A stretch of 64,000 nucleotides of DNA from the sequence record OQ411014.1, one strand, 5' to 3'. The notes under the pieces were generated by a model, which was not told the DNA's origin, searched no databases, and was given only the letters and a program-made list of their open reading frames with translations. This DNA comes from Escherichia phage EJP2. Within the stretch, counting starts at the first letter, position 1, and every line of letters begins with the position of its first letter. Shown here one piece after another: positions 380-41,001 of this stretch. The translations under genes and the position numbers were made by a program.

Positions 380-1852
380 ATGCAAAACGTAAATTTCATC
401 CTAAACGCAGATAGTTACAAGCACTCTCATTTACTAATGATGAAAGAAGGTGTTCAAGCTCTTGAATCAAACATCATTGCTCGTAAACCATCTAAATTCA
501 CCAGTCATGTAGTTATGATGGGTCTTCAGATTTTCGTTCAGGAATATCTGGATATCACAATTACTGCGGCTGATATCGATGAAGCAGAGATTGAAACAAA
601 CGAACGTGGTGATGATTTTGACCGCGACTTCTGGGAACACATCGTGAATGTACACAAAGGTAAACTACCTTTACATATCCGTGCTATCCCTGAAGGTACA
701 GTAGTTCCAGTTGGTATGCCGTTGGTTCGCTCCTTCAGTACTGACCCACGTACTATGGTACTCGCTAGTTTCGTCGAAACTCAATTACAACGTGCAATCT
801 GGTTCCAAACTACTGTTGCATCTAATGCTCGCAGTATCAAGGAATTTCTTGCTGATACTATGGAACGTCATGCTGGTCATCGCTTTGTGGATTATCATCT
901 ACATAACTTCGGCTGTCGTGGTGCAAGTTCCTATGAAACAGCAATGCTCGCAGGTGTAGCTCATGCCGCTCTATTCAGTGGCTCTGACTGCCTATTAGCA
1001 AACCGTAGTATCAAATACTACTACAATACTACTAAACCATATGTTAGTAGTGTTATGGCGAGTGAACACAGTGCTACATGTTCTAACTCCGATGCAGACA
1101 AGCGTGATGATTCAGCAATGGCGTTGAAGATGGTTCGCCTATGGGAAAAGAAAGTAGATAAGTTCATTGCTAATGGTTCAGTTGGTGCACCCCCAATTGT
1201 TTCTGTAGTAATCGATACTTATGATGCTTATCGCTTTGTTCGTGAGTTCATCGGTACTCGTCTAAAATCTACAATCGAAGAGATTGCAGCTAAATGTCCA
1301 AGTGCTAAACTAGTAATGCGTCCTGATAGTGGTAATCCACTAACTATGCCAATCGAAATCGTATCTATCCTTATGGAGAAATTCGGTTCAGTACTGAATG
1401 CTAATGGCATGAAAGTACTTCCATCTTTCATTGGTGTTCTTCAGGGCGACGGAGTTTCAGAAAGTTCAATCCGTGAAATCGTCCACAACCTAGAGAAAAA
1501 GAACTACTCTCTAGAGAATCTAATCTTTGGTATGGGTGGTAAAAACTCCCACGTCGAAGGTGGTCGTGATGCATATTCTTTCGCCCAGAAAGGTTGTGCA
1601 CAGCAACTAGCTGATGGTACTTGGGAAGATTTGTTCAAAGATCCTATTACTGACGTTGGGAAAAAATCCCTTCGTGGTCGTGTAACTACTTACTTGTGCA
1701 AAGAAAGTGGGAAGATGATGGCTGAACGAATCGAACTACAAGAAGTAAATCCTTTCTTAGAAGATATGATGGTTGACATTTTTGTAAATGGTGATATCAT
1801 GAATCTAAGCTCTTTTGATGATGTACGTGCTCGTGCGAACAAGGGATTGTAA
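380..1852 (+). CDS. nadV: nicotinamide phosphoribosyltransferase (NadV/NAMPT family)
   Basis: 490 aa; motifs LNADSYKHSH, AIPEGTVVP, FGCRGASS, RPDSGNPL, LQGDGV match the NAMPT family as recalled; RBS aaagagg upstream. Confidence 0.9.
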   Translation: MQNVNFILNADSYKHSHLLMMKEGVQALESNIIARKPSKFTSHVVMMGLQIFVQEYLDITITAADIDEAEIETNERGDDFDRDFWEHIVNVHKGKLPLHIRAIPEGTVVPVGMPLVRSFSTDPRTMVLASFVETQLQRAIWFQTTVASNARSIKEFLADTMERHAGHRFVDYHLHNFGCRGASSYETAMLAGVAHAALFSGSDCLLANRSIKYYYNTTKPYVSSVMASEHSATCSNSDADKRDDSAMALKMVRLWEKKVDKFIANGSVGAPPIVSVVIDTYDAYRFVREFIGTRLKSTIEEIAAKCPSAKLVMRPDSGNPLTMPIEIVSILMEKFGSVLNANGMKVLPSFIGVLQGDGVSESSIREIVHNLEKKNYSLENLIFGMGGKNSHVEGGRDAYSFAQKGCAQQLADGTWEDLFKDPITDVGKKSLRGRVTTYLCKESGKMMAERIELQEVNPFLEDMMVDIFVNGDIMNLSSFDDVRARANKGL

Positions 1853-2788: not shown

Positions 2789-3391
2789 ATGACTTGTATT
2801 ATCGCTTTTACTGATGGTAAATCATCCTTCATCGCAGGTGACAAACTAGGTTCCAACGGCTTTACTAAATCAGTAATGGTTGAACCAAAAGTCTTTGAGA
2901 AAGAGTTTCATCGTGTTAGTACCAATGATGAAGGTACTGTGCGGACGCGTGAAACGATGGCACTCGGTTATACTACGTCATTTCGTATGGGACAACTTCT
3001 GTCTTACAATCTAGTACTGCCTGACCAAGATGCGAATCAATCCTTCAGTCAGTACCTGGTTCAGAAAGTAATTCCACTTATTCGTCATATGTTCAAAGAT
3101 GAATGGGGTGCACGTGATAGCTCACAAGATATTGGTGGTGGTCAGTTCATTATTCTGCATAACCACACTATCTACGAAGTTCAAGGTGACTTCTCAGTAC
3201 TGCAACCTAAGACACAAATTACTGCTGTAGGTTCAGGTACTTACCATGCAATTGCAGCTATGCAAGCACTACAAAGTGTTTCATCTGATACTAAGAAAGA
3301 TCTACTACATTACGTACCAACGATTTTTGATATTGTCAGTACTAATGTAACTTCAGTATCTGCTGAACATGATGTATTGCATTACAAATAA
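2789..3391 (+). CDS. HslV/proteasome-like Ntn-hydrolase peptidase
   Basis: N-terminus MTCIIAFTDGKSSFIAGD parallels HslV MTTIVSVRRNGHVVIAGD (Thr after Met); AVGSGTYHAIAAMQAL parallels HslV IGSGGPYAQAAARAL. Confidence 0.5.
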   Translation: MTCIIAFTDGKSSFIAGDKLGSNGFTKSVMVEPKVFEKEFHRVSTNDEGTVRTRETMALGYTTSFRMGQLLSYNLVLPDQDANQSFSQYLVQKVIPLIRHMFKDEWGARDSSQDIGGGQFIILHNHTIYEVQGDFSVLQPKTQITAVGSGTYHAIAAMQALQSVSSDTKKDLLHYVPTIFDIVSTNVTSVSAEHDVLHYK

Positions 3392-3582
3392 TGGTTGATA
3401 TATTTTTCATTGTAATGATGATGCTTGGTGTATTCGGGTTGATTGCAATTACCCGAATCACTGATAGACCATACACAGATAACATTGAACGCGTTTGTAT
3501 GTTTCTACTAAGTACTATAATGTTGGTTATCGTTGGTGTAGTAGGTTCTATGTTTGCAGAACTAATTCTAATTGCGTACTGA
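3391..3582 (+). CDS. small membrane protein
   Basis: 63-aa hydrophobic ORF, start overlaps upstream stop. Confidence 0.3.
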   Translation: MVDIFFIVMMMLGVFGLIAITRITDRPYTDNIERVCMFLLSTIMLVIVGVVGSMFAELILIAY

Positions 3583-3605
3583 TGTACGCTTTTTAAGGAG
3601 TACTT

Positions 3606-3839
3606 ATGGACTTAGCAGATTTGGTTTATGTTGTATCGTTAGTACTGTACGGTATTTGTATAGTACTGACTATGTTAGAATGGAGTACTTGGAGTGATGG
3701 TTTCAAAGAACTAAATGGTGAGTTTACCTCTAAATACTATGCAATTAGTTATTTTATCATGAAGTTAGGTATGATTGGAATGTATGGTATTTTGGGATAT
3801 CTATTCTACTTCTTACCTGAACATATGAGATTATTTTAG
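3606..3839 (+). CDS. small membrane protein
   Basis: 77-aa ORF with ggag RBS; hydrophobic segments. Confidence 0.35.
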   Translation: MDLADLVYVVSLVLYGICIVLTMLEWSTWSDGFKELNGEFTSKYYAISYFIMKLGMIGMYGILGYLFYFLPEHMRLF

Positions 3840-3849
3840 GAGATATAAA

Positions 3850-4281
3850 ATGGCAGGAAAAGGATATTGCAGCCTAAAACTTGATAAAGCACAAGCAAAG
3901 GAATTGAAACGGATTTTAAAAATCGGTGGCGTTGAATGCTTAGACCCTTCGGATTTGCATTGTACTTTAATGTACGATGAAAGTAATCCTAACATCAAAA
4001 TGCTCAAGAACACAAAGACTTATAAAGCTAAAGTAACTGGTGTTAGTAAATTGGGTGATGCGATTGTATTGGATTTGGAATCCCCTGGCATCAAGAAACG
4101 TCATCAGGAATTGAAGAATGCTGGTTATAAGCACTCATTCCCTGAATTGAAAATTCATATGAGCATCAACTACGATCCAAAAAGTACTGATAAGGATTTA
4201 CTAGAACTCTTTATCAAATTGAAGGGTATTCCTTCAGTACTGATATTTGGTAATGAAAAATTTGAATCTCTAAAGCCGTAA
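3850..4281 (+). CDS. 2H phosphoesterase-family protein (LigT/Acb1-like fold)
   Basis: two H-x-T/S-x motifs (HCTL near residue 37, HMSI near residue 113) at the spacing typical of 2H phosphoesterases; 143 aa. Confidence 0.5.
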   Translation: MAGKGYCSLKLDKAQAKELKRILKIGGVECLDPSDLHCTLMYDESNPNIKMLKNTKTYKAKVTGVSKLGDAIVLDLESPGIKKRHQELKNAGYKHSFPELKIHMSINYDPKSTDKDLLELFIKLKGIPSVLIFGNEKFESLKP

Positions 4282-4291
4282 GGAGTATATA

Positions 4292-5050
4292 ATGGACGTG
4301 AATAAATTTCTTGACAACAAAGGACAAAAGCGTCTGTTAGTACTAACTGGTGCGGGTTTCAGTGCGGAATCTGGAGTTAGTACATTTCGTGATGCAGAAG
4401 ATGCCCTATGGGAAGGTGTGAAGATTAACGATGTATGTAACATTGCGAGCTTAGGCTTTAAGTACGCACAAGTACATGCATTCTACAACACACTAAGAAC
4501 TATCATCAAGGACAAAGAGCCTAACGAAGCACACTATGAAATTAGCGTTATGGAGTCAATGTACGGGGATAACTTCCTACACATGACTGCTAATATCGAT
4601 GATTTATATGAGCGTGCTGGTGGCACTGCTATGCACCTTCATGGCAACATCAAAGAAGTCATTGAGAACTATTCAATGGCACATAACGACTTTACAGTAC
4701 TGGATGTTGGATATGAAGTTTATATTCCAAAGGAAGGTGTATTTGCTAAACCTAATGTAGTATTCATTGGTGAATCAGAGCGTTATGTGAATAACCAGCG
4801 TATTCCGTTGTATGAAGAACGAAATAAAGTACTGGCATCCTTGACAGACTTAGATACCGTTGTTATCATTGGTTCATCGGATACAATCCTGAAGTGGAGT
4901 TCGTTGGTTGGTTTAGGCACACCAGCTTATACCATCAACATCAACACAAGAAAGAATGACACTGACTGGGCGTTCGATAAGAAGATTTACAAGCCAGTAA
5001 CTAAAGCGTTATTGGAATTGAGGGAGTTAGTTCTTACACGGATGGGATAG
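4292..5050 (+). CDS. Sir2-family protein lacking the zinc ribbon
   Basis: GAGFSAESGVSTFR, TANIDDLYERAGG, HLHG, PNVVFIGES, VVIIGSS match sirtuin core motifs; no CxxC pairs after the HG motif. Confidence 0.7.
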   Translation: MDVNKFLDNKGQKRLLVLTGAGFSAESGVSTFRDAEDALWEGVKINDVCNIASLGFKYAQVHAFYNTLRTIIKDKEPNEAHYEISVMESMYGDNFLHMTANIDDLYERAGGTAMHLHGNIKEVIENYSMAHNDFTVLDVGYEVYIPKEGVFAKPNVVFIGESERYVNNQRIPLYEERNKVLASLTDLDTVVIIGSSDTILKWSSLVGLGTPAYTININTRKNDTDWAFDKKIYKPVTKALLELRELVLTRMG

Positions 5051-5059
5051 GAGTGAGTT

Positions 5060-5614
5060 ATGGATTTTACAGAGATACCATTCGGACAACGCAGTGAAAG
5101 ATTTGACTGTGCGTTCGTTTGGATCTACGCTAAGAATTGCACACCATACAAGGATTATCCATATAATGATATTCCTAACGTATCTTTAGTACTGACAGAG
5201 TTACGCTTTGATGGTCTAATGGGTGCGGTTGGTGGAGCAGTTGAGGATGATGATCCTTCATTGGAAGTGGCAGTGCAACGTGAAGCCTTAGAGGAAATAA
5301 ACTTTTCTCTTGACATTACTAATCTGAAACCGTTATTATCATTACGTTCCCCATACGGAGCACATAACCATAGTTTCTCGTACGAAGTACAGTACGATGA
5401 GCTACTAGAGATTCGGAACAACGCATACAAAGGTGCTCACTTCAGTGCTGAAAATGCGGGTGTAAATCTGATTCACGTATGTCGCTATACGAAGGGAAGA
5501 GGGAACGAATGTGGTTACAATAACATTCTTACACAGAATTTTATTGGCACATCCAAACTGGAACTAGAGCGTTTAGTTCATAATGAAAATTTACTAATAA
5601 ATTACCTTGCATAA
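5060..5614 (+). CDS. Nudix-like hydrolase (imperfect Nudix box)
   Basis: GGAVEDDDPSLEVAVQREALEEINF contains REALEE with altered spacing from the canonical Nudix box. Confidence 0.45.
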   Translation: MDFTEIPFGQRSERFDCAFVWIYAKNCTPYKDYPYNDIPNVSLVLTELRFDGLMGAVGGAVEDDDPSLEVAVQREALEEINFSLDITNLKPLLSLRSPYGAHNHSFSYEVQYDELLEIRNNAYKGAHFSAENAGVNLIHVCRYTKGRGNECGYNNILTQNFIGTSKLELERLVHNENLLINYLA

Positions 5615-5624
5615 AGGATAAAAT

Positions 5625-5957
5625 ATGTATAAGATGTTTATAGACGACCTTCGGGATGCAGAGAAGCATTACCCAAATGAAGGATTCATCGTCACAAGGA
5701 CTTACAATGAAGCTGTACAGTACGTACAAGAACATGGTCTACCTAGTTTTGTTTCATTCGACCATGACTTGGGCGACACTGACAGTACTGATGAGAAGAC
5801 TGGATATTCTTTTGCTAAGTTCCTCATCGAGTACATGATTGATAACGATTTGCGGGAACCGTTTGAGTACTTTATTCACAGTGCTAATCCAGTTGGTGCA
5901 GAGAATATCAAACAGTACTTGCAAAATGGGTTCAACTTTATCCAAGGGCAAGCATGA
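5625..5957 (+). CDS. hypothetical protein
   Basis: 110-aa ORF with aaggat RBS. Confidence 0.45.
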   Translation: MYKMFIDDLRDAEKHYPNEGFIVTRTYNEAVQYVQEHGLPSFVSFDHDLGDTDSTDEKTGYSFAKFLIEYMIDNDLREPFEYFIHSANPVGAENIKQYLQNGFNFIQGQA

Positions 5958-6244
5958 AAGTAATAACATTTATTCTGATTTTGATTGTTGTTGTTGGTAT
6001 TCGCCTTAAAATAGCGGAGAACCAATACAACACTGAAAGACTGAATATTACGAAAGAATCTGGAACAGTAGTTGCAACTGGACAATGCAACAAATACACT
6101 TGTGCTTACTCTGTAAAAACCTCTAGTGGTTCTACAGTGAACAGTACTGGTGACACTCCGGTAAGTCTCGGTCAAATCGTATACCGTGAATGCTGGGAAG
6201 AAAGGGTCAGGGGTCCGCGTTGTTACGTAGACTTTAGACCATAA
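5954..6244 (+). CDS. hypothetical protein with N-terminal signal or anchor
   Basis: 96 aa; hydrophobic N-terminus VITFILILIVVVG; ATGA start/stop overlap with upstream gene. Confidence 0.4.
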   Translation: MKVITFILILIVVVGIRLKIAENQYNTERLNITKESGTVVATGQCNKYTCAYSVKTSSGSTVNSTGDTPVSLGQIVYRECWEERVRGPRCYVDFRP

Positions 6245-6269
6245 AACACTATCATGAAAAGGGAATTTT

Positions 6270-7724
6270 ATGAAAAAATATGCTATTGATACAAACGTAC
6301 TTCTAAGCGATCCAAACGCAGCAACCGCTTTCAAAGGTGCTACAGTGGTTCTACCATTTACAGTACTGGAAGAAATGGACTCCATCAAGAGTCGTGGTGT
6401 TGACGTTAGCCGTGATGCACGTGTAGCAATTCGCAATATCAGTAACATCCTGGAAGACGCGTCTCATGAAGAGATTAGTACTACTGGGGTTGATATGTCC
6501 AAACTACATCCACATTTAGATTCCGACAGTCGTCTAATGATTGTTACATCTGAAGAAGCTGAAGCACTTCTACGTGTTGCAGGTATTGATAAGTCCGATG
6601 CTGAACTTACAAAAGTTGCTACACTAATGAACAGTACTGTACCGGATGACAAGATTATTCTTGTTGCTCTAGCTACAGAATCAGTACTGGTTACTCGTGA
6701 TATCAACATGCGTATCAAAGCTATGGCTTATGGTGTTGAAGTTCAGGACTATCGTAGTGATGTTACTATTTCCGATTCTGACCTACTACATATTGGGAAC
6801 CACAAACTAGAGTTTTCGTTCTGGGATACCATTGCGGATCGTGGTTTAGAAGTTTTCAGTACTAAAGAAGGTCGTAACACTTATCAACTAATTGCTAAAG
6901 ATGCAATTCAGGATCTACTACCAGAAAATCTATGCGTTGGTGACTATCTATATGATGACACTGATTTGCTAATGGTATATGATGGAGAAGGTGATCGTGA
7001 GTTCTCTGATGGTGAAGTTGATGACACAGTGTACTCCGTGTTCATTGATGTTGGTCAACACAGTGCAATGCGTACTAAGATTTGGGATATCAAAGCTAAG
7101 AACGTGAAACAAGCAATGGCAATCAACAGTATTCTTGACCCTAATGTTCACTTGACAGTACTGTTAGGTTCTGCGGGTACAGGTAAGACTTTGATTACTC
7201 TAGCATGTGCACTAGAACTAACATTAGAGAAGCGTCAGTACGATAAAGTTATTTTCTCTAAAACCCAAGACTCACAGTTTGATGAAATTGGTTTCTTACC
7301 AGGAACCGAAATGGAAAAAATGCTTCCGAATTGTGGACCTGCACTGGATGCATTGGAATTCCTTCACAAAGATGATGCTAACCCTCAAGGTTCAATTGAA
7401 GAAATCATCAAACGTAATGTTGTACAATTCAAAGCACTGAACTTTATTCGTGGACGTTCGTTTACCAATACAATTCTAGTTGTTGATGAATTCCAAAACA
7501 TTACTCCGGCTCAAGCTAAAACTATCTTGACACGGGCAGGAATGAACTGTAAAGTTATCATCATGGGTAACTTAGCACAGATTGATAGTAAGTTTATCAG
7601 TTCTGTAAACAGCGGTTTGACCTATGTAGTTGAGAAGTTCAAAGATTGGGAAGGTTGTCGTATCATCGAACTCGAAGGTGTTGTACGTTCTGCACTAGCT
7701 GAATTCGCTGAAGAAAATATGTAA
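6270..7724 (+). CDS. phoH: PIN-domain / PhoH-like ATPase fusion
   Basis: N-terminal YAIDTNVLLSDP (PIN-like); Walker A LLGSAGTGKT; Walker B-like VVDEFQNI. Confidence 0.8.
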   Translation: MKKYAIDTNVLLSDPNAATAFKGATVVLPFTVLEEMDSIKSRGVDVSRDARVAIRNISNILEDASHEEISTTGVDMSKLHPHLDSDSRLMIVTSEEAEALLRVAGIDKSDAELTKVATLMNSTVPDDKIILVALATESVLVTRDINMRIKAMAYGVEVQDYRSDVTISDSDLLHIGNHKLEFSFWDTIADRGLEVFSTKEGRNTYQLIAKDAIQDLLPENLCVGDYLYDDTDLLMVYDGEGDREFSDGEVDDTVYSVFIDVGQHSAMRTKIWDIKAKNVKQAMAINSILDPNVHLTVLLGSAGTGKTLITLACALELTLEKRQYDKVIFSKTQDSQFDEIGFLPGTEMEKMLPNCGPALDALEFLHKDDANPQGSIEEIIKRNVVQFKALNFIRGRSFTNTILVVDEFQNITPAQAKTILTRAGMNCKVIIMGNLAQIDSKFISSVNSGLTYVVEKFKDWEGCRIIELEGVVRSALAEFAEENM

Positions 7725-7731
7725 TATATTG

Positions 7732-7758
7732 GGGGAGTTTCAATACTCCCCATTCATT
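7732..7758 (+). terminator. hairpin ggggagt/actcccc with interrupted T-tract
   Basis: inverted repeat directly after the phoH stop. Confidence 0.45.
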
Positions 7759-16881: not shown

Positions 16882-19581
16882 ATGACTAAAAGAATTTATG
16901 GAGGCTTAGACGTTACTCATAACGTAACAGTTCAGGGCAAAAGGACAGTACAAGGTATCAATAATCAAGTATTCGATGCGAATGGTGATATGAAGATTAA
17001 TACCTATACTCAACAGGAATTACTCGATATTGTTAGCTTAATGCCAATATCACACTACGGTACTCACAACTACTTACCTGCTGGTGTTAGTGGGGACTTT
17101 AATGGTGCAGCGGAGAACCCAGCACAACGTAGAAACAAAATCCTACTGGAGAACGATGGTACACTAGTAATGCTACGTGCTGGTACAAACGGCAGTGTAG
17201 AAGGTTTATTCTATGCTTACCTACCAAATGCACTATCAGTTACTGATTTAGGTAGAGGTGTAAACACTGGTCGTCAGTACAAGCCAGGTTATTTTGGTAG
17301 TACTAAAACTGCTTTCGGTTTGTATAATACAGATGAGAACATTCTTCTAGGAAGATATTCTGATTCGTCAAATGGCAGTACTGGATGGTTTATTTCCATT
17401 ACTAACGGAACACTAGATGACACACAACATAATGGTTTCTTCTTGAATGCTTATACTGATATTGCCCCTCAAGGTGGTGTTGAATATGCAATGATGGCAG
17501 AAGATGGTTCAATTTACGTATTCAGTGTAGATACAAGTAATAACGAATTTAATATTGCAGTTGTTAGAGTTACTTTCAATTTGACGAATAAAACTTACAC
17601 AGCGTCAAGAATCACTGGTTGGACAACCAAGACGTTCTATAATACTACATATTCAGCAGATACTAATATTGTAGTGACGAAGAAAGTAAACTCAACTAAT
17701 ATCGCTGATAAGCCATATATGTACGTTCCGAATGGACTACTTGGTTTAGGTGTATACATGACGTCAATTGACTTGTGTGTAGCACAACAGCCAGGTACAC
17801 AGAACTTCCGCTTTAGAGTTAATGGTGATGCGTGGGCTACTATGGCAACGTATAATACCAGACCACAGCACAGTTATAGTTTCAACTTCAATATGAGTAC
17901 TAAACAATGTACGCTGGATGCAGGGAATGACATTGGTTCAAACGCAGCACCATTTATTGTTACTAATACAGGTTCACAATTAATTGCTTCTGGTAACGTA
18001 ATCAACCAAGATGATTTATATAATCACGGTGGGTGGAGAAACATTTATAGTTCTTACTATTACTTGGATATTGGTACAGTATTCTGTACTACGAGTCCTA
18101 ACTTGTCAGAACCATTGGGGATTGAAAAAGCAACATACCCAGCACAAAGTGTTTACAGTATGCTTAACGTAAGAGCAGTCAATGCATCAGCATTCAATAA
18201 AGGGAATCTTGGTCCTTCGTTCGGTTCAGCAGTTGGTTCTTACATTAACGGCGTAGAATTACTACCAGGTAACAGTACTAAACAATTCTCTCGTTCTTCT
18301 GGTACTGGTGCATTTAGACCATCATATGCAGTACATGCTGCTTCACCTACCTTTACGTTTAAATCTCTTTCAAGAGGTACAATGAAAGGTTATGAGCCTA
18401 CTGCTGAACGTGATTTCATTACAGATAATATAAACAACCGTATTTTCATTAGTACTGTATCTGGTTCGAATGTTACGACAAATGGTGGGATTTTCATGGT
18501 TGGTCAACGTTATTCACAGTCTTTGTCATTTGACAAACATGGTGTTGGTACTGGAACAATCTCGGTCACTGATTCAGTACTGGTAAATTTCAGAAATTCT
18601 GAATATGCAAAAGTACCTGCTTCATGGAATCTTTCTACAGCAGCAACTAAAGATATGACACTATTTGTTCCACAACAAACTGATATTCCTGCTTTTGTAA
18701 TGTTAAGTACTGTTACTACTGGAAATAAAAACTATATTAAGATTGTGGAAGTGAACGTTAATACCAGAAGTGGTAATATTACTTCAATTAGTTTTAAGCG
18801 TAATGTAATTGAAAACGTTTATGGTGATAGTTTTACACCAAATGGTGCTGGTGGTTTTGCTTCATCTTCTGTAGGTTTAACAATATATGATGGCGGTTCG
18901 TTCTACTTTATTGGTGGTTCAGATCCTTTATCTCACCCAACAATTGGCAATACGAATACACATCAATTCAGAGCTATTGTTACTAAAAGTACTGCACAAT
19001 TTGACAGCTTTATTATTTCAGGTTCACATGCTAGTTATGAACAGGGTATTCAACCTGCTGCTCTTCCTGGTATTGGCTTTGGGTATTTCCAAGCAATTGA
19101 CTACTCAAACAAAATGACATTCCAGAAATGTGGTACTACTGTTGCTGAATATAATGCATGGACAGCAATTGGTGATCCAATTAACGTAGTTTCACAAGAC
19201 GTTGCACAAGGATTTGTTGTTTACTTCAACGAAGAAACACCAGTAATGCTCAGTGGTAAGTCATTTACGATGCCAGTTCAAAGTGTTGATTTGAAAACTA
19301 TTAAAGCTAACCCAGCGAATACGACATTCCACATTTATGTGAGAATGAACCAAGGTAATGCAGAATATCATATAACTACTGAAGTTATTTCCGAAACTGG
19401 TAGTACTGCATATAACGTATTCTGGATTGGTACTGTTACTACGGATGCTATCCAAATCTCGACTATTAATGTATTCAAGCGTTCTCGTTTGGATGTATTT
19501 GGTGCATCACTTGAACCAACCGGATCATCATTCCCAGTGAGTTATGGTCTACCATCAGGCAACGGAACAATTAACTGGTAA
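16882..19581 (+). CDS. putative tail fibre / receptor-binding protein (paralog A)
   Basis: 899 aa, S/T/G/N-rich; N-terminal similarity to 20188 ORF; shared C-terminal motif ending GTINW. Confidence 0.5.
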   Translation: MTKRIYGGLDVTHNVTVQGKRTVQGINNQVFDANGDMKINTYTQQELLDIVSLMPISHYGTHNYLPAGVSGDFNGAAENPAQRRNKILLENDGTLVMLRAGTNGSVEGLFYAYLPNALSVTDLGRGVNTGRQYKPGYFGSTKTAFGLYNTDENILLGRYSDSSNGSTGWFISITNGTLDDTQHNGFFLNAYTDIAPQGGVEYAMMAEDGSIYVFSVDTSNNEFNIAVVRVTFNLTNKTYTASRITGWTTKTFYNTTYSADTNIVVTKKVNSTNIADKPYMYVPNGLLGLGVYMTSIDLCVAQQPGTQNFRFRVNGDAWATMATYNTRPQHSYSFNFNMSTKQCTLDAGNDIGSNAAPFIVTNTGSQLIASGNVINQDDLYNHGGWRNIYSSYYYLDIGTVFCTTSPNLSEPLGIEKATYPAQSVYSMLNVRAVNASAFNKGNLGPSFGSAVGSYINGVELLPGNSTKQFSRSSGTGAFRPSYAVHAASPTFTFKSLSRGTMKGYEPTAERDFITDNINNRIFISTVSGSNVTTNGGIFMVGQRYSQSLSFDKHGVGTGTISVTDSVLVNFRNSEYAKVPASWNLSTAATKDMTLFVPQQTDIPAFVMLSTVTTGNKNYIKIVEVNVNTRSGNITSISFKRNVIENVYGDSFTPNGAGGFASSSVGLTIYDGGSFYFIGGSDPLSHPTIGNTNTHQFRAIVTKSTAQFDSFIISGSHASYEQGIQPAALPGIGFGYFQAIDYSNKMTFQKCGTTVAEYNAWTAIGDPINVVSQDVAQGFVVYFNEETPVMLSGKSFTMPVQSVDLKTIKANPANTTFHIYVRMNQGNAEYHITTEVISETGSTAYNVFWIGTVTTDAIQISTINVFKRSRLDVFGASLEPTGSSFPVSYGLPSGNGTINW

Positions 19582-20187: not shown

Positions 20188-22941
20188 ATGTCATCTAAAA
20201 GAGTAATAGGTTCAGTTGAGTTTTTAAGTAACTTAGCTGTAAATGGGAAATACGCAATGCGTTCCTTTAATGGTGTCAATCCAGATGCCAATACTGGTAT
20301 AATCACTTATCCATTTTATACCAGAGAAGAAGTTCAGAAGATTCTCGATATACTCCCTGTTTCACGTATAGGTGAAATGGACTATCTACCACCGAACGTA
20401 AGTGGTTCCTTTAGTGGAGCTACTTCATTCTCGAATGATCGCAGAGTTCAGCCATGTATTATTGAAGATGATGGTACAGCCGTAATTATTCGCCCTGGTA
20501 CGAATGGTAGTCAGTTTGATTTTTATTATGCTTACATCCGTAACGTCAGAAATATCCCAACTCTAACACAAAGTGATATTGTTCAGACGAATACCAGATA
20601 TCACCCATCATATCTTACTAGTACTCAAAAGATTGAACAATTTTACGGTACTGATGGATATGATCTTCTTTGGTACAGAGTTTCTGACTCAGTTAATAGT
20701 TCAAACTATTTTGCAATTACATTAACTAACGGTTCCTTTAACGTAGTAGGTCACCAACATGCTCTTATTCCACAAACATCTATGCCTAATTTCACACCAG
20801 CATATGCTCATATCGTGAATGGTTCAGTATACATGTGGGGCTATGACAGTACTTTAGGTTCAGGTAGAGCATTGAAGTTATACACTATCCCAACTAGTTC
20901 GTTGCGTTCTGGTGTTACTACTGGTTTAACTGCTGTCACTGGATTTAATGGAAAAACTATCAACGGTAATGCTTATACAGCAGCCAGTACTGCTAGGATT
21001 TATGATACATATGCAAGTACTACCAGTACTGCTGATTGCTTAATTCAATACACGTCTAACATGTATTCTCCTGAATATCACGACTACGCCATCTCCAATG
21101 CAATGGCGGCTGGTAATGCTGATAATACACAGATTCGTTTCACTATGTTCCCTACATATCGTTACGGTTCTGCGTATGGTTTTAGTGGTATATTCATGTA
21201 CGCAATTAGTTTAGTCTATAATATCAGTACTAAAACATTTACGTACGATACTACATCTTTAGGTAAAATTGTGGTGAATGCTACACTAAATGGTTCTACA
21301 ATGACCTATACAGAAACTGCTAACCCATATTTGGTTGATGCAACTTCATGGCGTGGTTTTGGTGCAAGTCTAGGTAACTGTGGAACAATCTGTCAAGCAG
21401 GTGATGGTTTCATGGTGAGTACTCGCTCTCGTTGGGCAAGTTCTGCTCCTTACGGTGTCAGTACTTCTAAGATTAATAACTTTACTTCTCAATTCGATTC
21501 TATTAAAATGACTGGTAGAAGTGTTACTGCAAATACTCAACTATTTGCTAACCCAATCTACGGTTCTGCAATTGGTGAGAACTTGATGGGTCCACGTCTG
21601 TTAAGTAAAACTCGTATGATTCTTGCATGTTCAGGTACATACGATGGTGTATCCAACGCAAGCTATGACAATACTGTAGTTGCGGACTTCGGTACTGATT
21701 CGAACTTCTCATACAAGTCAATGACTCAAGGTACACTTACTGGGTATGCACCACAAACGTATCGTAAATTCGCTAATAATGACAACTTCAGACTATCAGA
21801 ATTAGTAACACTAATGGACAGTACTGGTAATGTTCAAGCAAGTAGTACTGCATTCATCGAGAACGTTAAGTACACTGGTGGGATTGGTATTAACCCTGAT
21901 ACACTTGAATACACTGGCAGTACTGTTAATATGTCCAATGCAGTTATCCAATCACTTAAACAAGGTATTGCAACTTCTGCTGGTATTCCATTGAATACAA
22001 GTTTGCTTACAGTGTATTACATTCCTGATACATCATATTGCAATCACCAAGCAGTACTAATGGTTCGTAATCCTGATAACACTGGCGTTGTAGTACTAGC
22101 TGAAATGAATTTAACTACAAGTACTTCTGGAAGTACAATTACTGTTACTGGTGGTTCTGTAATAAGAACTTTCGTTCAGAACAGACCAAATATTACTTCA
22201 GTAAATGGTGGGAACTACGCTCGTAACGTTGGTGTTTGTGCTGGTAAATTCAGTGGTTTTAATTACCTTAGTGTTCACTCAGCGAATAACTTTGGTGTTC
22301 CTGGTGATGCAAGGTCTTATTCGTTCTTTGCAAAAGTTAAGGGTGGTGCTATAGTATCACAGAGAATCGATGAGTCCTATTATTCACAGACATATGGCAG
22401 GACTGGTGGTTTCCTACCAGGGAAAGGTTTCGGTTATTATGATAACTCAGTGAGTGATTACCAGACCAAATCCGTGTTCCAACTCTTCGGTACTACTGAA
22501 GCACAGATGGATGCACTAATTGCTGGTACTGGAACATCAACACCTGTTGTTGTTATGTCTCAAGAAGTTCCTGAAGGTTTTAGTGTTTACTTTACACAAG
22601 AACTACCAGTATTCTTAGGTGGTATGTACGATAAGCTACCAATCCAGACAGTTGATTTGAGAACTATCAAAGCTGATCCATCCAATACTACTTTCTATAT
22701 CTACGTATCAATGGATAGAAGTAAAGGTGAAGCATCATACGTTATCAGTACTGCACTCTTGGATGAAACTCTAACCAGAGCATTCATTGGTACTATTGTG
22801 ACTATTGATGCAGGTATTGACCGGATTGATGCAGAGAAGGTAACACGCTTCTTGACTTACAGACCAAGTACTTACAAGAGGGGTTCTGCAATCCCTGCGA
22901 GTACTGGTGTTCCATCTGGGACTGGTTCACGCTGGCATTAA
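20188..22941 (+). CDS. putative tail fibre / receptor-binding protein (paralog B)
   Basis: 917 aa; N-terminal region YTREEVQKILDILPVSRIGEMDYLPPNVSGSFSGA parallels the 16882 ORF; C-terminus RPSTYKRGSAIPASTGVPSGTGSRWH. Confidence 0.5.
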   Translation: MSSKRVIGSVEFLSNLAVNGKYAMRSFNGVNPDANTGIITYPFYTREEVQKILDILPVSRIGEMDYLPPNVSGSFSGATSFSNDRRVQPCIIEDDGTAVIIRPGTNGSQFDFYYAYIRNVRNIPTLTQSDIVQTNTRYHPSYLTSTQKIEQFYGTDGYDLLWYRVSDSVNSSNYFAITLTNGSFNVVGHQHALIPQTSMPNFTPAYAHIVNGSVYMWGYDSTLGSGRALKLYTIPTSSLRSGVTTGLTAVTGFNGKTINGNAYTAASTARIYDTYASTTSTADCLIQYTSNMYSPEYHDYAISNAMAAGNADNTQIRFTMFPTYRYGSAYGFSGIFMYAISLVYNISTKTFTYDTTSLGKIVVNATLNGSTMTYTETANPYLVDATSWRGFGASLGNCGTICQAGDGFMVSTRSRWASSAPYGVSTSKINNFTSQFDSIKMTGRSVTANTQLFANPIYGSAIGENLMGPRLLSKTRMILACSGTYDGVSNASYDNTVVADFGTDSNFSYKSMTQGTLTGYAPQTYRKFANNDNFRLSELVTLMDSTGNVQASSTAFIENVKYTGGIGINPDTLEYTGSTVNMSNAVIQSLKQGIATSAGIPLNTSLLTVYYIPDTSYCNHQAVLMVRNPDNTGVVVLAEMNLTTSTSGSTITVTGGSVIRTFVQNRPNITSVNGGNYARNVGVCAGKFSGFNYLSVHSANNFGVPGDARSYSFFAKVKGGAIVSQRIDESYYSQTYGRTGGFLPGKGFGYYDNSVSDYQTKSVFQLFGTTEAQMDALIAGTGTSTPVVVMSQEVPEGFSVYFTQELPVFLGGMYDKLPIQTVDLRTIKADPSNTTFYIYVSMDRSKGEASYVISTALLDETLTRAFIGTIVTIDAGIDRIDAEKVTRFLTYRPSTYKRGSAIPASTGVPSGTGSRWH

Positions 22942-23333: not shown

Positions 23334-23721
23334 AATATATGACATCATTAAAACTCTTAAAACTTGTAAGAGAGTAACATTATCTGAAAAAGTTTACTGC
23401 GGTTTAAATGATAAAAAGTGTATCATGTTCGATTGTATAGATGATGGTGAATCCAGCATTAGTATTGCTAGTCCTAAGAATCCTAATGGTGATTTTATCT
23501 TCTGTACAGTTACTGATGAACTTGAATTTGTACTCGTCAAGAGTGATGGTGCACAATCTGAAATCTTAGACTTGAGTACTGAAGATAGATTCTTTCAACG
23601 AAGTTTACTCTTTGACTTATCATTAACCTATGATGAGTATCAATCAGTACTTCATAATTTCAACAAATTTTATAACGGACTAATCAGTACTGTTATAATC
23701 TATTCAACCGAGGTCATATAA
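23320..23721 (+). CDS. hypothetical protein
   Basis: 133-aa ORF overlapping neighbours by a few nt. Confidence 0.45.
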   Translation: MQEHKIYDIIKTLKTCKRVTLSEKVYCGLNDKKCIMFDCIDDGESSISIASPKNPNGDFIFCTVTDELEFVLVKSDGAQSEILDLSTEDRFFQRSLLFDLSLTYDEYQSVLHNFNKFYNGLISTVIIYSTEVI

Positions 23722-24968
23722 TGTCAAAAAATATGCTCGAAAATATCATCGTAAAACACTACGCTGGTAGTATCGCTTATGGTACAAATACTCCCTTATC
23801 AGATGTTGATTTCCGTGGAATCTTTATGGCTCCAAAGGAATTCATCTTGTCTCCGTTCGTAAACGTAGGGGAAGCATCTGATTCAAAAGAAGAAGATACT
23901 AAATTCTACGAACTCAATAAGTTCATGAAACTAAATGTCGATGCGAACCCGAATATCCTCGAAACACTATGGGTCGATGATGAACACATCGTTGAAAGTA
24001 CTGAAATGTACCAACATCTTCGCAAGCACAGAAGTGAACTACTAAGTAATAAGATTGCATTTACTTATACTGGATTCGCATATAACCAAGTTCACCGCAT
24101 GAGCAACCATAATGGCTGGATGGATAAAGAGAGAATTGCTGAACGCAGACTCAATGAAATCATCGAAAAACATCCTTGTATTGAAGTGAAAGAGTGGATG
24201 TACGAATATTTCCCTCATTATGTCATTGACCGGATTGACTTCTCTAATGTAAAAGGTTATAGTGATGATGTTGATTTGGACTTGGATAAGTTCTTGCGTG
24301 ATAGTTCTCTGCAACTGATCAGTACTAAATCCTTAGCACAGCATCACTTCGTGCGTTTAGTACATAATTACTTACCACAGAAAGTACTTGACCGTGATTT
24401 CAACTTAGCTCATTTCAATACGAATCATGAACTAATTCACTACGGTGATAATATCTTTGCAGTAGTTCCAACTCAGGGGAAATCGAAAGTACTTTCAGTA
24501 CATAACGATTTAGTTTGGGATTCAAAGAAAGAACGTACTCCTGAAGAACTAAAAGTACTTCCATCTTTGATTGTGAAATTCAATCGCAAAGAATATGAAG
24601 AACTGAATGATAAACGCAAGCACTATCACAAGTGGAAAGAGAACCGTAACAGTATTCGTGCTGAACTGGAGTCAAAGAATGGCTTCGATACTAAGCACGC
24701 AATGCACGTGGTTCGTTTATTACGTACAGCAAAAGAAGCACTGTTGACTGGTGTCATCAACGTCAAACGTCCTGATGCGGAAGAATTACTTGCAATCCGT
24801 AATGGTGCTTGGACATATGAAGAAATGATGAAGTACTTTGAATCTGAATCTAAATTAGTAATGAACTTAGGTAAAACATCAAAAGTACTTCCATCGTCCC
24901 CAAACCGTAAACTAGCAACTCAATTAGTACTAGACTTACGTGAGATGCATTGGAAACAAGGAAAATAA
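23721..24968 (+). CDS. Pol-beta superfamily nucleotidyltransferase (PF10127-like)
   Basis: N-terminal AGSIAYGTNTPLSDVDFRGIF matches the GS...G...SDxDxRG signature; 415 aa. Confidence 0.5.
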   Translation: MSKNMLENIIVKHYAGSIAYGTNTPLSDVDFRGIFMAPKEFILSPFVNVGEASDSKEEDTKFYELNKFMKLNVDANPNILETLWVDDEHIVESTEMYQHLRKHRSELLSNKIAFTYTGFAYNQVHRMSNHNGWMDKERIAERRLNEIIEKHPCIEVKEWMYEYFPHYVIDRIDFSNVKGYSDDVDLDLDKFLRDSSLQLISTKSLAQHHFVRLVHNYLPQKVLDRDFNLAHFNTNHELIHYGDNIFAVVPTQGKSKVLSVHNDLVWDSKKERTPEELKVLPSLIVKFNRKEYEELNDKRKHYHKWKENRNSIRAELESKNGFDTKHAMHVVRLLRTAKEALLTGVINVKRPDAEELLAIRNGAWTYEEMMKYFESESKLVMNLGKTSKVLPSSPNRKLATQLVLDLREMHWKQGK

Positions 24969-33441: not shown

Positions 33442-34071
33442 ATGACAACTCACGTTAGGTATTATATTGCATATAATGGAAGACCAGTTCGTTCTATTGG
33501 ATTAGATCTTGAGCCAGTAATGTCTGTACAGACTAATCTATACTTCAGTACTGAAGAAGAAGCAGACTCTTTCATTATGACTAGGATTGCAACTGCGTCC
33601 ACTACACTTTATCATATTCATTTTGATTGTATTGATAAGTACTCAATCGTCAAAGAAATTGTTCAGTTGGAACCGTGCAGTACTAAAACTAATTATATGC
33701 GAAACTATACTCTAACTTGGTTGCGATTACTCGACCAGGATATCTGTACTGATTCTATGATTTCCACTACTATACGTGCGTTCGTCATGCGTGGGTTTAG
33801 TACATCAGGATTGGATTTAGAAGAAGTGAAAAACTTGATTTTGGGTAATCCAAAACTTCAAAAAACCATTGACAAACTTATTCCAAAGCATATAATCTCT
33901 AATATTGAAAATTACATGCAAGATGGTTTAGTCAATGCTCCGGTGGAAGAGCTTGAATTCTTGAATCTAACAATTTCAGATGAAATGAAATTTGATCTTG
34001 ACTTCGAAGAACTCTTCCCTTACAATAAGTTCAAACCAACAAAATGGGAAAATCATGGAACTAGTAACTGA
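33442..34071 (+). CDS. hypothetical protein
   Basis: 209-aa ORF. Confidence 0.45.
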   Translation: MTTHVRYYIAYNGRPVRSIGLDLEPVMSVQTNLYFSTEEEADSFIMTRIATASTTLYHIHFDCIDKYSIVKEIVQLEPCSTKTNYMRNYTLTWLRLLDQDICTDSMISTTIRAFVMRGFSTSGLDLEEVKNLILGNPKLQKTIDKLIPKHIISNIENYMQDGLVNAPVEELEFLNLTISDEMKFDLDFEELFPYNKFKPTKWENHGTSN

Positions 34072-35308
34072 AGGTCGCAAACTCGTAACAATTCGTAAAA
34101 TCAATGCAATTGATGCAATTGAAGGTGCAGATCTGATTGTCAAAGCAACTGTTGACGGTTGGGATGTAGTTGTGAAGAAAGATGAATTCAACGTTGGGGA
34201 TTACTGTGTATTCTTCGAAATCGATTCATTCCTTCCAGTACAGACACCACAATTCGCATTCTTGGCGGGTTCAGGCTGTAAACTCGATGAACAGAATGTA
34301 GAACGTTTCCGTCTACGTACTCGTAAACTTCGCGGGGTAGTCTCTCAAGGCTTGGCTCTACCAGTATCTCTATTTGAGGCAGTACTGGAAGCTATTGACG
34401 AAGCTGGTGGTCATCACCCTGACTCGTACACTACAACGGCACGTGAAGAACTCCTAGTGAGTCTAGAGGCGAATCGTGAAGGCATTGAGCAATTCCTCAA
34501 TGTAACCAAATACGAGCGTCCTGATGAGCGTAATGGCGGTACTGGTGCATCTAAGTGCAAAGCTGCTGGTAACTTCCCTATCGTCATTCCTAAGACTGAT
34601 GAAGACCGTATTCAGAACGTAATGGGTAAGTACTCTCAGACTATGAAAGGTGTTGCATTCCGTAAATCACTGAAACTGGATGGTTCTAGCCAGACAATTG
34701 CATTCATTAGCAATCCTGATTTCTTTGTAGATAAAGTTGATGAAGAAGTCCGTGCATGGAATGAAGAGACTCAAGAACTTGAAGTTGTTGAAGTGAAGCC
34801 ATACCCGTTCCAATGGGAAGATGGTCAGGTAGCAGTATGTTCTCGCAATCTTGCGTTGAAATTTGATGCTGAATCTCACTTCTGGAAAGCAGCACTGAAA
34901 GATGATATTCCAGCACGTCTGAAAGAGTACTGTGTTCGTAATGACCGCCAACTAGCACTACAAGGCGAAGTAATGGGTCCTGGTATCCAAGGGAACCGTG
35001 AAGAACTGACCGAACATCAATTCTACGTATTCCGTATTTGGGATATTGATAATAAATGTTTCCTTGATGATGGTGATTTCTTGACACTATCTGCACTACT
35101 GGGATTGACTACAGTACCGCAAGGTGATATCGTGTACTTCTTCGATGAATACACTTCTATCAAAGAAGCATTGGCATCTGCTGACCACGCATCTATCAAG
35201 CATAAGATCGCGGAAGGCGATGTGTTCAAAAGTGTATCTAAAGTGAATGGTGTTACTGTACACTTCAAGGTAATCAACAACAAATTCTTGCTCAAATGTG
35301 AGGACTAA
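34055..35308 (+). CDS. ATP-dependent RNA ligase-like nucleotidyltransferase
   Basis: start set at ATG 34055; candidate motif I lysine in SLKLDGSS (KxDG) about 170 aa from the N-terminus, preceded by an N-terminal domain. Confidence 0.5.
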   Translation: MELVTEGRKLVTIRKINAIDAIEGADLIVKATVDGWDVVVKKDEFNVGDYCVFFEIDSFLPVQTPQFAFLAGSGCKLDEQNVERFRLRTRKLRGVVSQGLALPVSLFEAVLEAIDEAGGHHPDSYTTTAREELLVSLEANREGIEQFLNVTKYERPDERNGGTGASKCKAAGNFPIVIPKTDEDRIQNVMGKYSQTMKGVAFRKSLKLDGSSQTIAFISNPDFFVDKVDEEVRAWNEETQELEVVEVKPYPFQWEDGQVAVCSRNLALKFDAESHFWKAALKDDIPARLKEYCVRNDRQLALQGEVMGPGIQGNREELTEHQFYVFRIWDIDNKCFLDDGDFLTLSALLGLTTVPQGDIVYFFDEYTSIKEALASADHASIKHKIAEGDVFKSVSKVNGVTVHFKVINNKFLLKCED

Positions 35309-39891: not shown

Positions 39892-41001
39892 ATGAAAAAG
39901 TATTTGGTTGGTGGTTTTGTACGCGATAAGCTACTTGGCTTACGTCCTAAAGACAAAGATTATGTCTTGGTAGGAGCGACCCCGCGTGATATTCAGTACT
40001 TAAAAAGTATTGGATATGAGCAGGTTGGTGCAGACTTCCCTGTGTTCTTGGATAAGGACGGCAATGAGCACGCACTTGCCCGTACTGAACGCAAGGTGTC
40101 TGATGGCTATAATGGCTTTGAAGTGAATACACAAGGTGTAACGCTTCAGGAAGACTTGTATCGTCGTGATTTGACCATCAATGCGATTGCCTTTGACCCA
40201 CAGTTAAAGGTACACGTAGACCCATATGGTGGCAAAGAAGACCTAAAGAACAAAGTACTGCGACATGTATCTGAACATTTTGAAGAAGATCCAGTACGTA
40301 TTCTGCGTATCGCTCGTTTCAGTGCACGTTATTCGGACTTTACAGTACATGAAAGTACTGAATCGTTGATTCGCCGTATGATCAATCGTGGCGATATTTC
40401 TGAATTGACTAAAGAGCGAGTGTACGTAGAATTCGAGAAAGCATTCTCCGAAGAAGAGCCAGTTATCTTCCTGGAGAAGCTATCCAAATGGGGAGCCATG
40501 AGTAAGTTGATTCCTGGTAATCCTGAAAGTACTTACAAGACTATTGAATACATTAGTTCCAATTGTACTTTAGCGTATAAGGATTTTTACTTGTGGGCTG
40601 AACTAATTGGTTCTAATGAAGTACAAAAAGATGGAGTCTTTGGTCAGGTCAAGCTACCATCGCGTTACTCTAAGTTCAGTGCGTATGTATGCAAGCACGC
40701 GGATAGTATCAAGAATTTCCGTAAGAGCACCCCAGAAGAAATGGTAAATATTCTTACTGAGATGAGCGTAAAGAACAACGGTGGTGAAGAGTACTTGTAC
40801 AAAGTACTGGAATACTTTATCCTACGTAAAGAGATTGATTTGGACTTAGAAGATTTGATTATTCGAGTTTATGATCGCTTTGAGAATACGGTCATTGGTA
40901 ATATTGATCAGATGCTTAAAGATGGAACTATCACTTCACGTGAAATTCCTTCTTTTGTGAAAGAGAAGCGAATCGCTGAGGTGGAAAAAATCTTCAAATA
41001 A
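39892..41001 (+). CDS. CCA-adding tRNA nucleotidyltransferase / poly(A) polymerase family
   Basis: GGFVRDKLLG, DKDYV and RRDLTINA head-domain motifs; 369 aa. Confidence 0.8.
   Translation: MKKYLVGGFVRDKLLGLRPKDKDYVLVGATPRDIQYLKSIGYEQVGADFPVFLDKDGNEHALARTERKVSDGYNGFEVNTQGVTLQEDLYRRDLTINAIAFDPQLKVHVDPYGGKEDLKNKVLRHVSEHFEEDPVRILRIARFSARYSDFTVHESTESLIRRMINRGDISELTKERVYVEFEKAFSEEEPVIFLEKLSKWGAMSKLIPGNPESTYKTIEYISSNCTLAYKDFYLWAELIGSNEVQKDGVFGQVKLPSRYSKFSAYVCKHADSIKNFRKSTPEEMVNILTEMSVKNNGGEEYLYKVLEYFILRKEIDLDLEDLIIRVYDRFENTVIGNIDQMLKDGTITSREIPSFVKEKRIAEVEKIFK

Follow-up and report, generated by a model that had tools for sequence, protein, structure and literature searches.

A phage sirtuin without zinc ligands, with a conserved NAD+ site and a remodelled acceptor cleft, encoded in a conserved gene array of Escherichia phage EJP2

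What does a sirtuin do in a phage when the cysteines of its zinc ribbon are gone? The question is raised by a 64,000-nucleotide stretch of Escherichia phage EJP2 (record OQ411014.1; the whole of it is called the window here), in which an ATG-to-stop open reading frame on the plus strand (4292..5050) encodes a Sir2-family protein of 252 amino acids. An AAGGAG ribosome-binding site, read from the sequence (4280..4285, plus strand), lies 6 nt before the ATG and shares nucleotides with the stop codon of the preceding gene, which encodes a 2H phosphoesterase. A sequence-only reading of the locus had recognized the core sirtuin motifs and the absence of the zinc cysteines, and had proposed from that absence an enzyme of the NADase or ADP-ribosyltransferase type, rather than a classic deacetylase, which could modify host proteins or manipulate NAD pools. 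Our analysis shows instead an enzyme of the true-sirtuin type from which zinc has been lost secondarily.

All four motifs of that reading are present: GAGFS, the Rossmann NAD-binding motif (residues 20–24, 4349..4363), TANID (residues 99–103, 4586..4600), HLHG with the catalytic His117 (residues 115–118, 4634..4645) and PNVVFIGE with the FGE loop (residues 154–161, 4751..4774; all on the plus strand). Across an alignment of 72 sequences, with 30 cellular relatives among them, G20, G22, S24, N101, D103, H117 and G118 are invariant, so the catalytic histidine has not been lost; P154, V157, G160 and E161 are conserved in the phage and cellular clades, and the glutamine of the TQNID motif has gone. 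The assignment does not reflect a chance pattern, since the protein matches the Pfam SIR2 family (PF02146, E 1.1e-19, 71.5 bits against a cut-off of 24, profile positions 1–177 of 180), PHROG 2162 (E 1.4e-65, 222 bits) and E. coli CobB (E about 5e-24).

Homologues occur in 991 of 50,697 phage records (about 2%), among them T5-like, rV5-like and KVP40-like phages. Among phages in the databases, the closest are Erwinia phage Hallingskeid (76% amino-acid identity, 366 kb genome) and Escherichia phage 121Q (57%, 349 kb), and a 99%-identical protein is known only from a read-archive assembly. As a megablast search of positions 3800–6300 returned no DNA-level match in the phage collection, identification relied on protein searches; these gave 38 close homologues (46–99% identity), all on large phage-like contigs, followed by cellular CobB-like sirtuins at E about 1e-25. 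Judged from its sequence, the protein is almost certainly a catalytically competent sirtuin that belongs to a phage-centred, secondarily zinc-less subfamily (PHROG 2162) and, within it, to the jumbo-phage branch of 121Q/Rak2-like phages.

How complete is the loss of the zinc module? C49 is the sole cysteine of the protein, there is no CxxC, and the 34 residues between HG and KPNVV contain one histidine, H131, and no cysteine. Nearly all cellular relatives carry a CxxC-x16-CxxC module that starts 8 residues past HG and whose four cysteine columns are 97–100% conserved (n=30); in the window protein these columns hold E125 (4664–4666), S128 (4673–4675), I145 (4724–4726) and E148 (4733–4735; all plus strand). 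Because the cysteine columns align to these residues and the length of the segment is kept, the module has not been deleted: only its ligands have been substituted, and the remnant (residues 119–153, 4646..4750, plus strand, delimited by column-by-column comparison) bears a conserved D-V-G-Y motif. A cryptic zinc or other metal site at the former ligand positions is ruled out, given that one of them is an isoleucine, the others are glutamate, serine and glutamate, and H131 stands alone in the segment. The absence of the zinc-ribbon cysteines is thereby confirmed, and the Cys4 ribbon of the canonical zinc-containing sirtuins (classes I–IV and U) is not present. The cysteine motif is likewise missing in 38 of 38 homologues of the jumbo-phage clade, and in those of KVP40, T5-like and rV5-like phages and Justusliebigvirus. 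In the AlphaFold2 model (mean predicted local distance difference test score, pLDDT, 93.7; predicted template-modelling score, pTM, 0.91) the former ribbon is confidently placed, with block pLDDT values of 93–97 and the strands 118–125 and 135–138 kept after HG; the sole weak stretch is the cofactor-binding loop at residues 31–40. According to this prediction, the small domain would survive without zinc.

The place of the loss can be narrowed by traits common to all phage lineages examined, namely a cofactor loop with V-C-N, a small domain with D-[IV]-G-Y, K-P ahead of NVVF, and no VYP. Pseudochelatococcus has a zinc-less sirtuin (P0040, P0042, P0043) with the same traits. Two further sirtuins, P0115 (contig L014, 1458–2183) and P0120 (contig L013, 3430–4242), combine V-C-N and D-I-G-Y with an intact CxxC...CxxC, which argues that zinc was lost within the phage-centred subfamily. 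Their contigs look phage-like, with small open reading frames and, in L013, a Gp23 capsid gene. In a crude neighbour-joining tree the jumbo-phage clade received 99% bootstrap support, the group of T5-like, rV5-like, Justusliebigvirus and KVP40 homologues 94%, and monophyly of all phage sirtuins 11%. P0115 is labelled verrucomicrobial by one source and P0120 has no source name; the contigs further include genes for an arginase and for an AAA_28 (NadR-type kinase-like) protein. The Pseudochelatococcus protein P0042 (L011, 6001–7496) is a cysteine-free cellular sirtuin with HG intact and D-I-G-Y, and its gene runs into the next one downstream, which codes for LplA-B_cat (lipoate/biotin ligase-like). 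With an Old-Yellow-Enzyme gene in the vicinity, the context recalls the extended SirTM operon, yet P0042 is not a SirTM.

If the zinc ligands have gone, what has been kept? The residues conserved in both the phage clade and its cellular relatives (G20-A21-G22, S24, E26-S27-G28, F32-R33, W40, H62, F64-Y65, R69, P77-N78, H81, T99, N101, D103-D104-L105, R108, G110, H117-G118, P154, V157, G160-E161, D188, G194, S196 and N218) are, as read from the alignment, those of the NAD+ site and the catalytic set. A different picture emerges at positions that are 90–100% conserved in cellular CobB-like enzymes and changed in the phage clade. C49-N50-I51 (4436..4444, plus strand), a phage-subfamily signature that is 97–100% conserved in the jumbo-phage clade and present in KVP40, T5-like and rV5-like homologues too, takes the place of a CobB-type A-T-P that is 93–97% conserved in cellular relatives; C49 corresponds in the alignment to CobB A76, a residue of the acyl-pocket lining (a mapping from engineered CobB variants, made through the mutant chain and the titles of PDB entries). 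The class III Y-x-x-R pair for acidic acyl groups (CobB Y92/R95) is broken, its tyrosine being kept as Y65 and its arginine replaced by L68 (L, M, Q or R across the jumbo-phage clade); T5-like, rV5-like and KVP40 homologues retain the arginine. Position 100, the glutamine of TQNID in 100% of cellular relatives, is alanine in the window protein and A, S or T in the phage clade. The histidine of the cellular DxLHERAG has become Y106, the WF of VVWFGE has become FI (M/F followed by F/I/L across the clade), GTSG has become GSSD in the phage clade, and VYPAAGF has given way to (V/I)(L/I)(K/Q/R)-W202-S203, so that the window protein reads I-L-K-W-S for V-Y-P-A-A. Finally, an insertion specific to the jumbo-phage clade follows FGE (residues 162–175, SERYVNNQRIPLYE, 4775..4816, plus strand). 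Alignment and model describe it as 11 extra residues that form a predicted beta-hairpin with strands 163–166 and 169–172; it is missing from cellular, T5-like, rV5-like and KVP40 homologues, and R164, Y165, G168, R170, Y174 and R177 are conserved in its region (Y165, G168, R170 and Y174 at 89–100%). On this comparison the changes concentrate on the acceptor (peptide/acyl-lysine) side of the cleft, which suggests a change of acceptor and not a loss of activity.

We then asked which sirtuins the protein resembles most. Foldseek against the PDB placed CobB first (template-modelling, TM, scores 0.78/0.86), followed by Sir2Af1/Af2, SIRT5 and PfSir2A. Structure-comparison values were 22.2 for Sir2Af1, 20.2 for PfSir2A, 19.0 for SIRT4, 18.4 for SIRT1, 17.5 for ySir2, 17.3 for SIRT2 and 17.1 for Hst2, compared with 15.3 for SirTM, 14.5 for SIRT6 and, among defence enzymes, 12.2 for PsSIR2, 11.1 for ThsA, 11.0 for KomC, 10.9 for HerA-Sir2 and 9.5 for Avs5. 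The NCBIfam CobB equivalog models (NF001755, NF040867 and others) score it at 104, 101.7 and 99.6 bits against cut-offs of 318, 243 and 320, and by these scores it is not a CobB equivalog; no PADLOC defence model matches it at E <= 0.01. SirTM enzymes have QG for HG, retain the zinc-coordinating domain and are linked to a macrodomain, GcvH-L and LplA2 (PMC4518038). Identity with SirTM is rejected on all of these counts, as the window protein has HG, no zinc ligands and no macrodomain neighbour (none was found among the main open reading frames searched, a subset of all frames, between 380 and 7724). The step from missing zinc to an NADase or ADP-ribosyltransferase is therefore not supported for this protein: the nearest relatives are CobB and class III deacylases, no defence model matches, SirTM itself keeps its zinc, and the loss is a secondary one inside a phage-centred sirtuin subfamily with CxxC-bearing members. 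That the enzyme is no classic deacetylase is still plausible, on the grounds of the remodelled acceptor cleft and the operon context; zinc loss is not a ground for it.

The operon context is that of a co-directional array on the plus strand, flanked by the only terminator-like hairpins (3574–3589 and 7732–7751). It opens with a small hydrophobic, membrane-like protein (3606–3839, described from sequence only and with no Pfam match) and the 143-residue Acb1-like 2H phosphoesterase directly upstream of Sir2 (3850..4281; PF23474 Acb1, E 1.8e-17; PHROG 755; H-x-T/S motifs at residues 37 and 103). Directly downstream of Sir2 lies a 184-residue Nudt16-like Nudix hydrolase (5060..5614; PF22327, E 2.6e-17; PF00293; PHROG 9999, E 4e-84; REALEE at residue 74), followed by a 110-residue cREC, a cyclic-phosphate-processing receiver-like domain (5625..5957; PF20274, E 6.1e-26). 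A 96-residue protein with an N-terminal hydrophobic segment (5954..6244) and a 484-residue PIN-PhoH fusion (6270..7724; PF13638, E 1.3e-21; PF02562, E 3.9e-43) complete it. Around Sir2, successive genes are 9–10 nt apart (10 nt to the upstream 2H gene), every one of them preceded by a Shine-Dalgarno site of its own; beyond this part, two adjacent genes share 4 nt, and PIN-PhoH starts after a gap of 25 nt. Hallingskeid, 121Q and, down to 46% identity, metagenomic relatives (L007/L008 and L009) have the same gene order, and a gene of about 100 residues occupies the position of the 96-residue protein in Hallingskeid and 121Q (annotated "membrane protein"), L007 and L009. In the 46%-identical relative (L007/L008, 5783–6688) a single fusion protein of 301 residues, encoded directly after Sir2, unites the Nudt16-like Nudix domain with that of cREC, from which it can be argued that both act on the same substrate. 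The 2H gene is missing from L009.

Upstream of the array, a gene for NadV/Nampt nicotinamide phosphoribosyltransferase (380..1852, plus strand; NF006629, E 1.2e-120, 403.4 bits, just below the 405-bit cut-off) supplies one half of an NAD+ salvage pathway, and in homologous loci NMNAT-Nudix and NAMPT genes stand just upstream of Sir2; the NMNAT partner of NadV in EJP2 would lie past the left end of the window. NadV and NMNAT form NARP2, an NAD+ salvage or reconstitution pathway with an experimentally shown role in counter-defence (10.1101/2024.02.11.579819). With the phage's own salvage gene near Sir2, manipulation of NAD pools by depletion, as had been suggested, is unlikely.

Is this company peculiar to jumbo phages? 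In rV5-like and other Vequintavirinae, Sir2 is found near a phosphoesterase (a metallophosphatase in Hena1), an RNA ligase, a cREC (with Pfam confirmation in phage ime only), a kinase-like gene (in Hena1 and VIK251) and a DNA ligase, and in T5-like phages Sir2 is followed by HAD_SAK_2, the "Swiss Army Knife RNA repair" HAD domain. The window itself also holds an RNA ligase (33992–35308; PHA02142 OB fold and PF09414), an RlaP "RNA repair pathway" nucleotidyltransferase (23721–24968) and a CCA-adding enzyme (39892–41001), an RNA-repair toolkit that follows the Sir2 array at a distance of about 19–35 kb; the window yielded no tRNA genes.

Taken together, our tentative preference is for an enzyme that would transfer ADP-ribose from NAD+ to an oxyanion acceptor other than acyl-lysine, most likely a phosphate monoester such as an RNA 2'-phosphate. 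With slightly greater reserve, we propose that it may be a sirtuin-fold analogue of Tpt1/KptA, which would remove RNA 2'-phosphates or ADP-ribosylate another phosphorylated nucleic-acid end, with clean-up by 2H, cREC and Nudix and with NAD+ salvage adjacent. This reading is favoured because the catalytic machinery is intact and the acceptor side rebuilt, and because three lineages independently pair Sir2 with enzymes of cyclic phosphates, phosphates or RNA ends, for which the processing of O-acyl-ADP-ribose is a difficult explanation; the RNA ligase, RlaP and CCA-adding enzyme of the window also count for it. The chemistry fits as well. In the scheme that we infer for acceptor, product and neighbouring genes, which parallels both the sirtuin and the Tpt1/KptA reactions, a phosphate oxygen would attack C1'' of NAD+ and expel nicotinamide; the ribose 2''-OH, activated via His117, would then attack the phosphorus to leave ADP-ribose 1''-2'' cyclic phosphate and RNA with a 2'-OH; 2H and cREC, encoded on the same transcript, would open the cyclic phosphate and Nudix would split the pyrophosphate; and NadV with its NMNAT partner would recycle nicotinamide into NAD+. 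A last reason is the distribution of KptA: true KptA/Tpt1 homologues were found in 98 phage records of other groups and, among the records listed, in 0 from Escherichia, Salmonella or Vibrio phages, which account for 373, 286 and 50 Sir2 records, respectively, a complementarity that is coarse, being drawn from genus counts and the records listed and not genome by genome.

That coarseness is one of several points that speak against a phosphate acceptor. KptA neighbourhoods in three jumbo phages gave no parallel to the 2H, Nudix and cREC context and were uninformative, a radical SAM protein being the only gene recognized there. The closest characterized relatives of the window protein are all protein deacylases, and the acceptor tunnel of sirtuins is built for a lysine side chain; the arginine of Y-x-x-R, a possible binder of anionic groups, is the one that the jumbo-phage clade has lost. 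The phage RNA ligase lies about 29 kb from the array and not within it. The 2H gene, given its Acb1-family score and its absence from L009, may be a genuine and independent counter-defence gene against the cyclic-oligonucleotide-based antiphage signalling system (CBASS) and not a partner in RNA repair or in this pathway. Finally, the literature searched contained no experimental study of any phage sirtuin, only the modelling of 2016 and comparative-genomics papers of 2021 and 2022.

We nevertheless favour a phosphate acceptor over a CobB-like, NAD+-dependent lysine deacylase that would work without zinc on host or phage proteins such as AMP-forming enzymes or ligases, an explanation we regard as doubtful. 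Here the removal of O-acyl-ADP-ribose would fall to Nudix, and that of inhibitory nicotinamide to NadV, which would recycle it; some Nudix enzymes do hydrolyse O-acetyl-ADP-ribose, and the adjacency of NadV fits. The best matches in sequence and structure (CobB, Sir2Af1/Af2, SIRT5 and PfSir2A) are what a deacylase would lead one to expect, as are the retained H117, N101, D103, F32-R33, Y65, G160 and E161, the Y-x-x-R kept in the T5-like, rV5-like and KVP40 homologues, and the lipoate/biotin ligase-like gene that adjoins the zinc-less cellular homologue. Modelling of the KVP40-like enzyme in 2016 came to the same conclusion, with salt bridges in place of zinc (PMC5107563). However, the peptide/acyl-lysine side of the cleft is precisely the part that has changed, with WF, VYP and CobB R95 lost and an insert after FGE; the NCBIfam CobB scores reach about one third of their cut-offs; and a deacylase leaves unexplained why cREC, 2H, HAD_SAK_2, RNA ligase and the kinase-like gene are linked to Sir2 again and again in three lineages.

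An enzyme of counter-defence or host takeover, be it an NADase, an ADP-ribosyltransferase acting on proteins or small molecules, or part of a module that destroys immune signals derived from nucleotides or ADP-ribose (ADPr), would suit a region rich in such functions, with the NadV of NARP2 and an Acb1-family 2H gene, and with Nudix and cREC genes predicted to process ADPr derivatives (PMC9503650). Of the explanations weighed here it comes nearest to the sequence-only reading. We consider it unlikely, as the protein is a standalone chain of 252 residues with no sensor or partner domain, neither a PADLOC match nor the defining features of SirTM, and an unregulated NADase is improbable in a phage with NAD+ salvage genes alongside; moreover, sirtuins break the nicotinamide-ribose bond of NAD+, and no known sirtuin degrades signals of the cyclic ADP-ribose type. 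Least credible of all, to the point that we give it hardly any weight, is a decaying or non-catalytic remnant in which loss of the zinc site marks loss of function. All four structural cysteine ligands have indeed gone, but the catalytic and NAD-binding residues are invariant over the 38 clade members down to 46% identity, the fold is confidently predicted with the former zinc module included, a homologue is retained in those 991 or so phage records, and the gene keeps its place in the operon behind a strong ribosome-binding site.

Several features of the window and of related phages lie outside this argument. An HslV-like peptidase gene (2789–3391; PHROG 1040) precedes the array, and 121Q has ClpP-like and HslV-like protease genes in the same relative position. 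A 190-residue open reading frame on the minus strand (5876–6448), opposite the genes for cREC, the membrane protein and PhoH, is probably spurious, because the plus strand there is densely coding with conserved homologues. Two tandem paralogous frames of about 900 residues each (16882–19581 and 20188–22941) match PHROG 3573, of unknown function, over their full length. In the rV5-like phage ime, a second "putative Sir2-like protein" (L005, 4773–5483) has neither a sirtuin alignment nor a Pfam match, and the annotation is for this reason probably wrong.

If the acceptor is a phosphate, the sirtuin superfamily would gain a new reaction and phages a new type of RNA-repair pathway, a recurrent phage gene cassette would be explained, and it would be clear that the small domain of a sirtuin can work without a zinc ribbon. 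As a computational prediction this idea has already appeared (PMC9503650), and only experimental proof would be new. A plain deacylase, on the other hand, would be the first evidence of phages editing the acyl-proteome of their host. Both the zinc loss and the gene neighbourhood are in print. Skliros et al. reported in 2016 that the Sir2/CobB proteins of KVP40 and phiSt2 have no zinc ligand, and suggested that salt bridges stand in for zinc and that the proteins act as deacetylases (PMC5107563). Iyer et al. described in 2022 the jumbo-phage sirtuin neighbourhood with 2H, Nudix, cREC and PIN (PMC9503650, section 3.7.3), along with those of the rV5 and T5/SP15 types, and predicted that phage sirtuins are KptA-like and remove RNA 2'-phosphates, the partner enzymes processing the resulting ADPr>P. 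To this the window adds another sequence and residue-level detail, and no new concept.

How, then, does the protein compare with systems already described? With CobB and the class III (SIRT5-like) deacylases it shares the overall fold, 31–35% identity, and GAGxS, F-R, N-x-D, HG, FGE and the tyrosine of Y-x-x-R; it differs from them in the absence of zinc ligands, in the replacement of the glutamine of TQNID, of R95, of the WF of VVWFGE and of VYP, and in the 11-residue hairpin after FGE. The defence Sir2 NADases (ThsA, DSR1/DSR2, SIR2-HerA, KomC and the SIR2 of Avs5) have in common with it a Rossmann-type SIR2 core and the catalytic asparagine and histidine, and many of them also lack the zinc ribbon; unlike them, it stands alone, with no fused or adjacent sensor or partner such as SLOG, HerA, pAgo/APAZ or STAND. 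The Sir2 proteins of KVP40, phiSt2 and phiGrn1 likewise have no zinc ligand, contain VCNI and D-I-G-Y and are tied to NAD+ salvage by the phage, although that of KVP40 is only 36% identical, belongs to another branch, retains Y-x-x-R, is without the insert after FGE, and is not encoded beside Nudix or cREC. From the clade of Iyer et al. (which includes 121Q gp476 and Hallingskeid CDS0557), with its membership of PHROG 2162, its linked 2H, Nudix, cREC and PIN genes and no adjacent macrodomain, the window copy does not differ in kind, but it is a new sequence. Tpt1/KptA, the proposed functional analogue, has an unrelated fold and belongs to another family without homology, the analogy being the published prediction; the likeness would lie in the consumption of NAD+, the release of nicotinamide, a 1'',2''-cyclic ADP-ribose product and a largely complementary distribution among phages.

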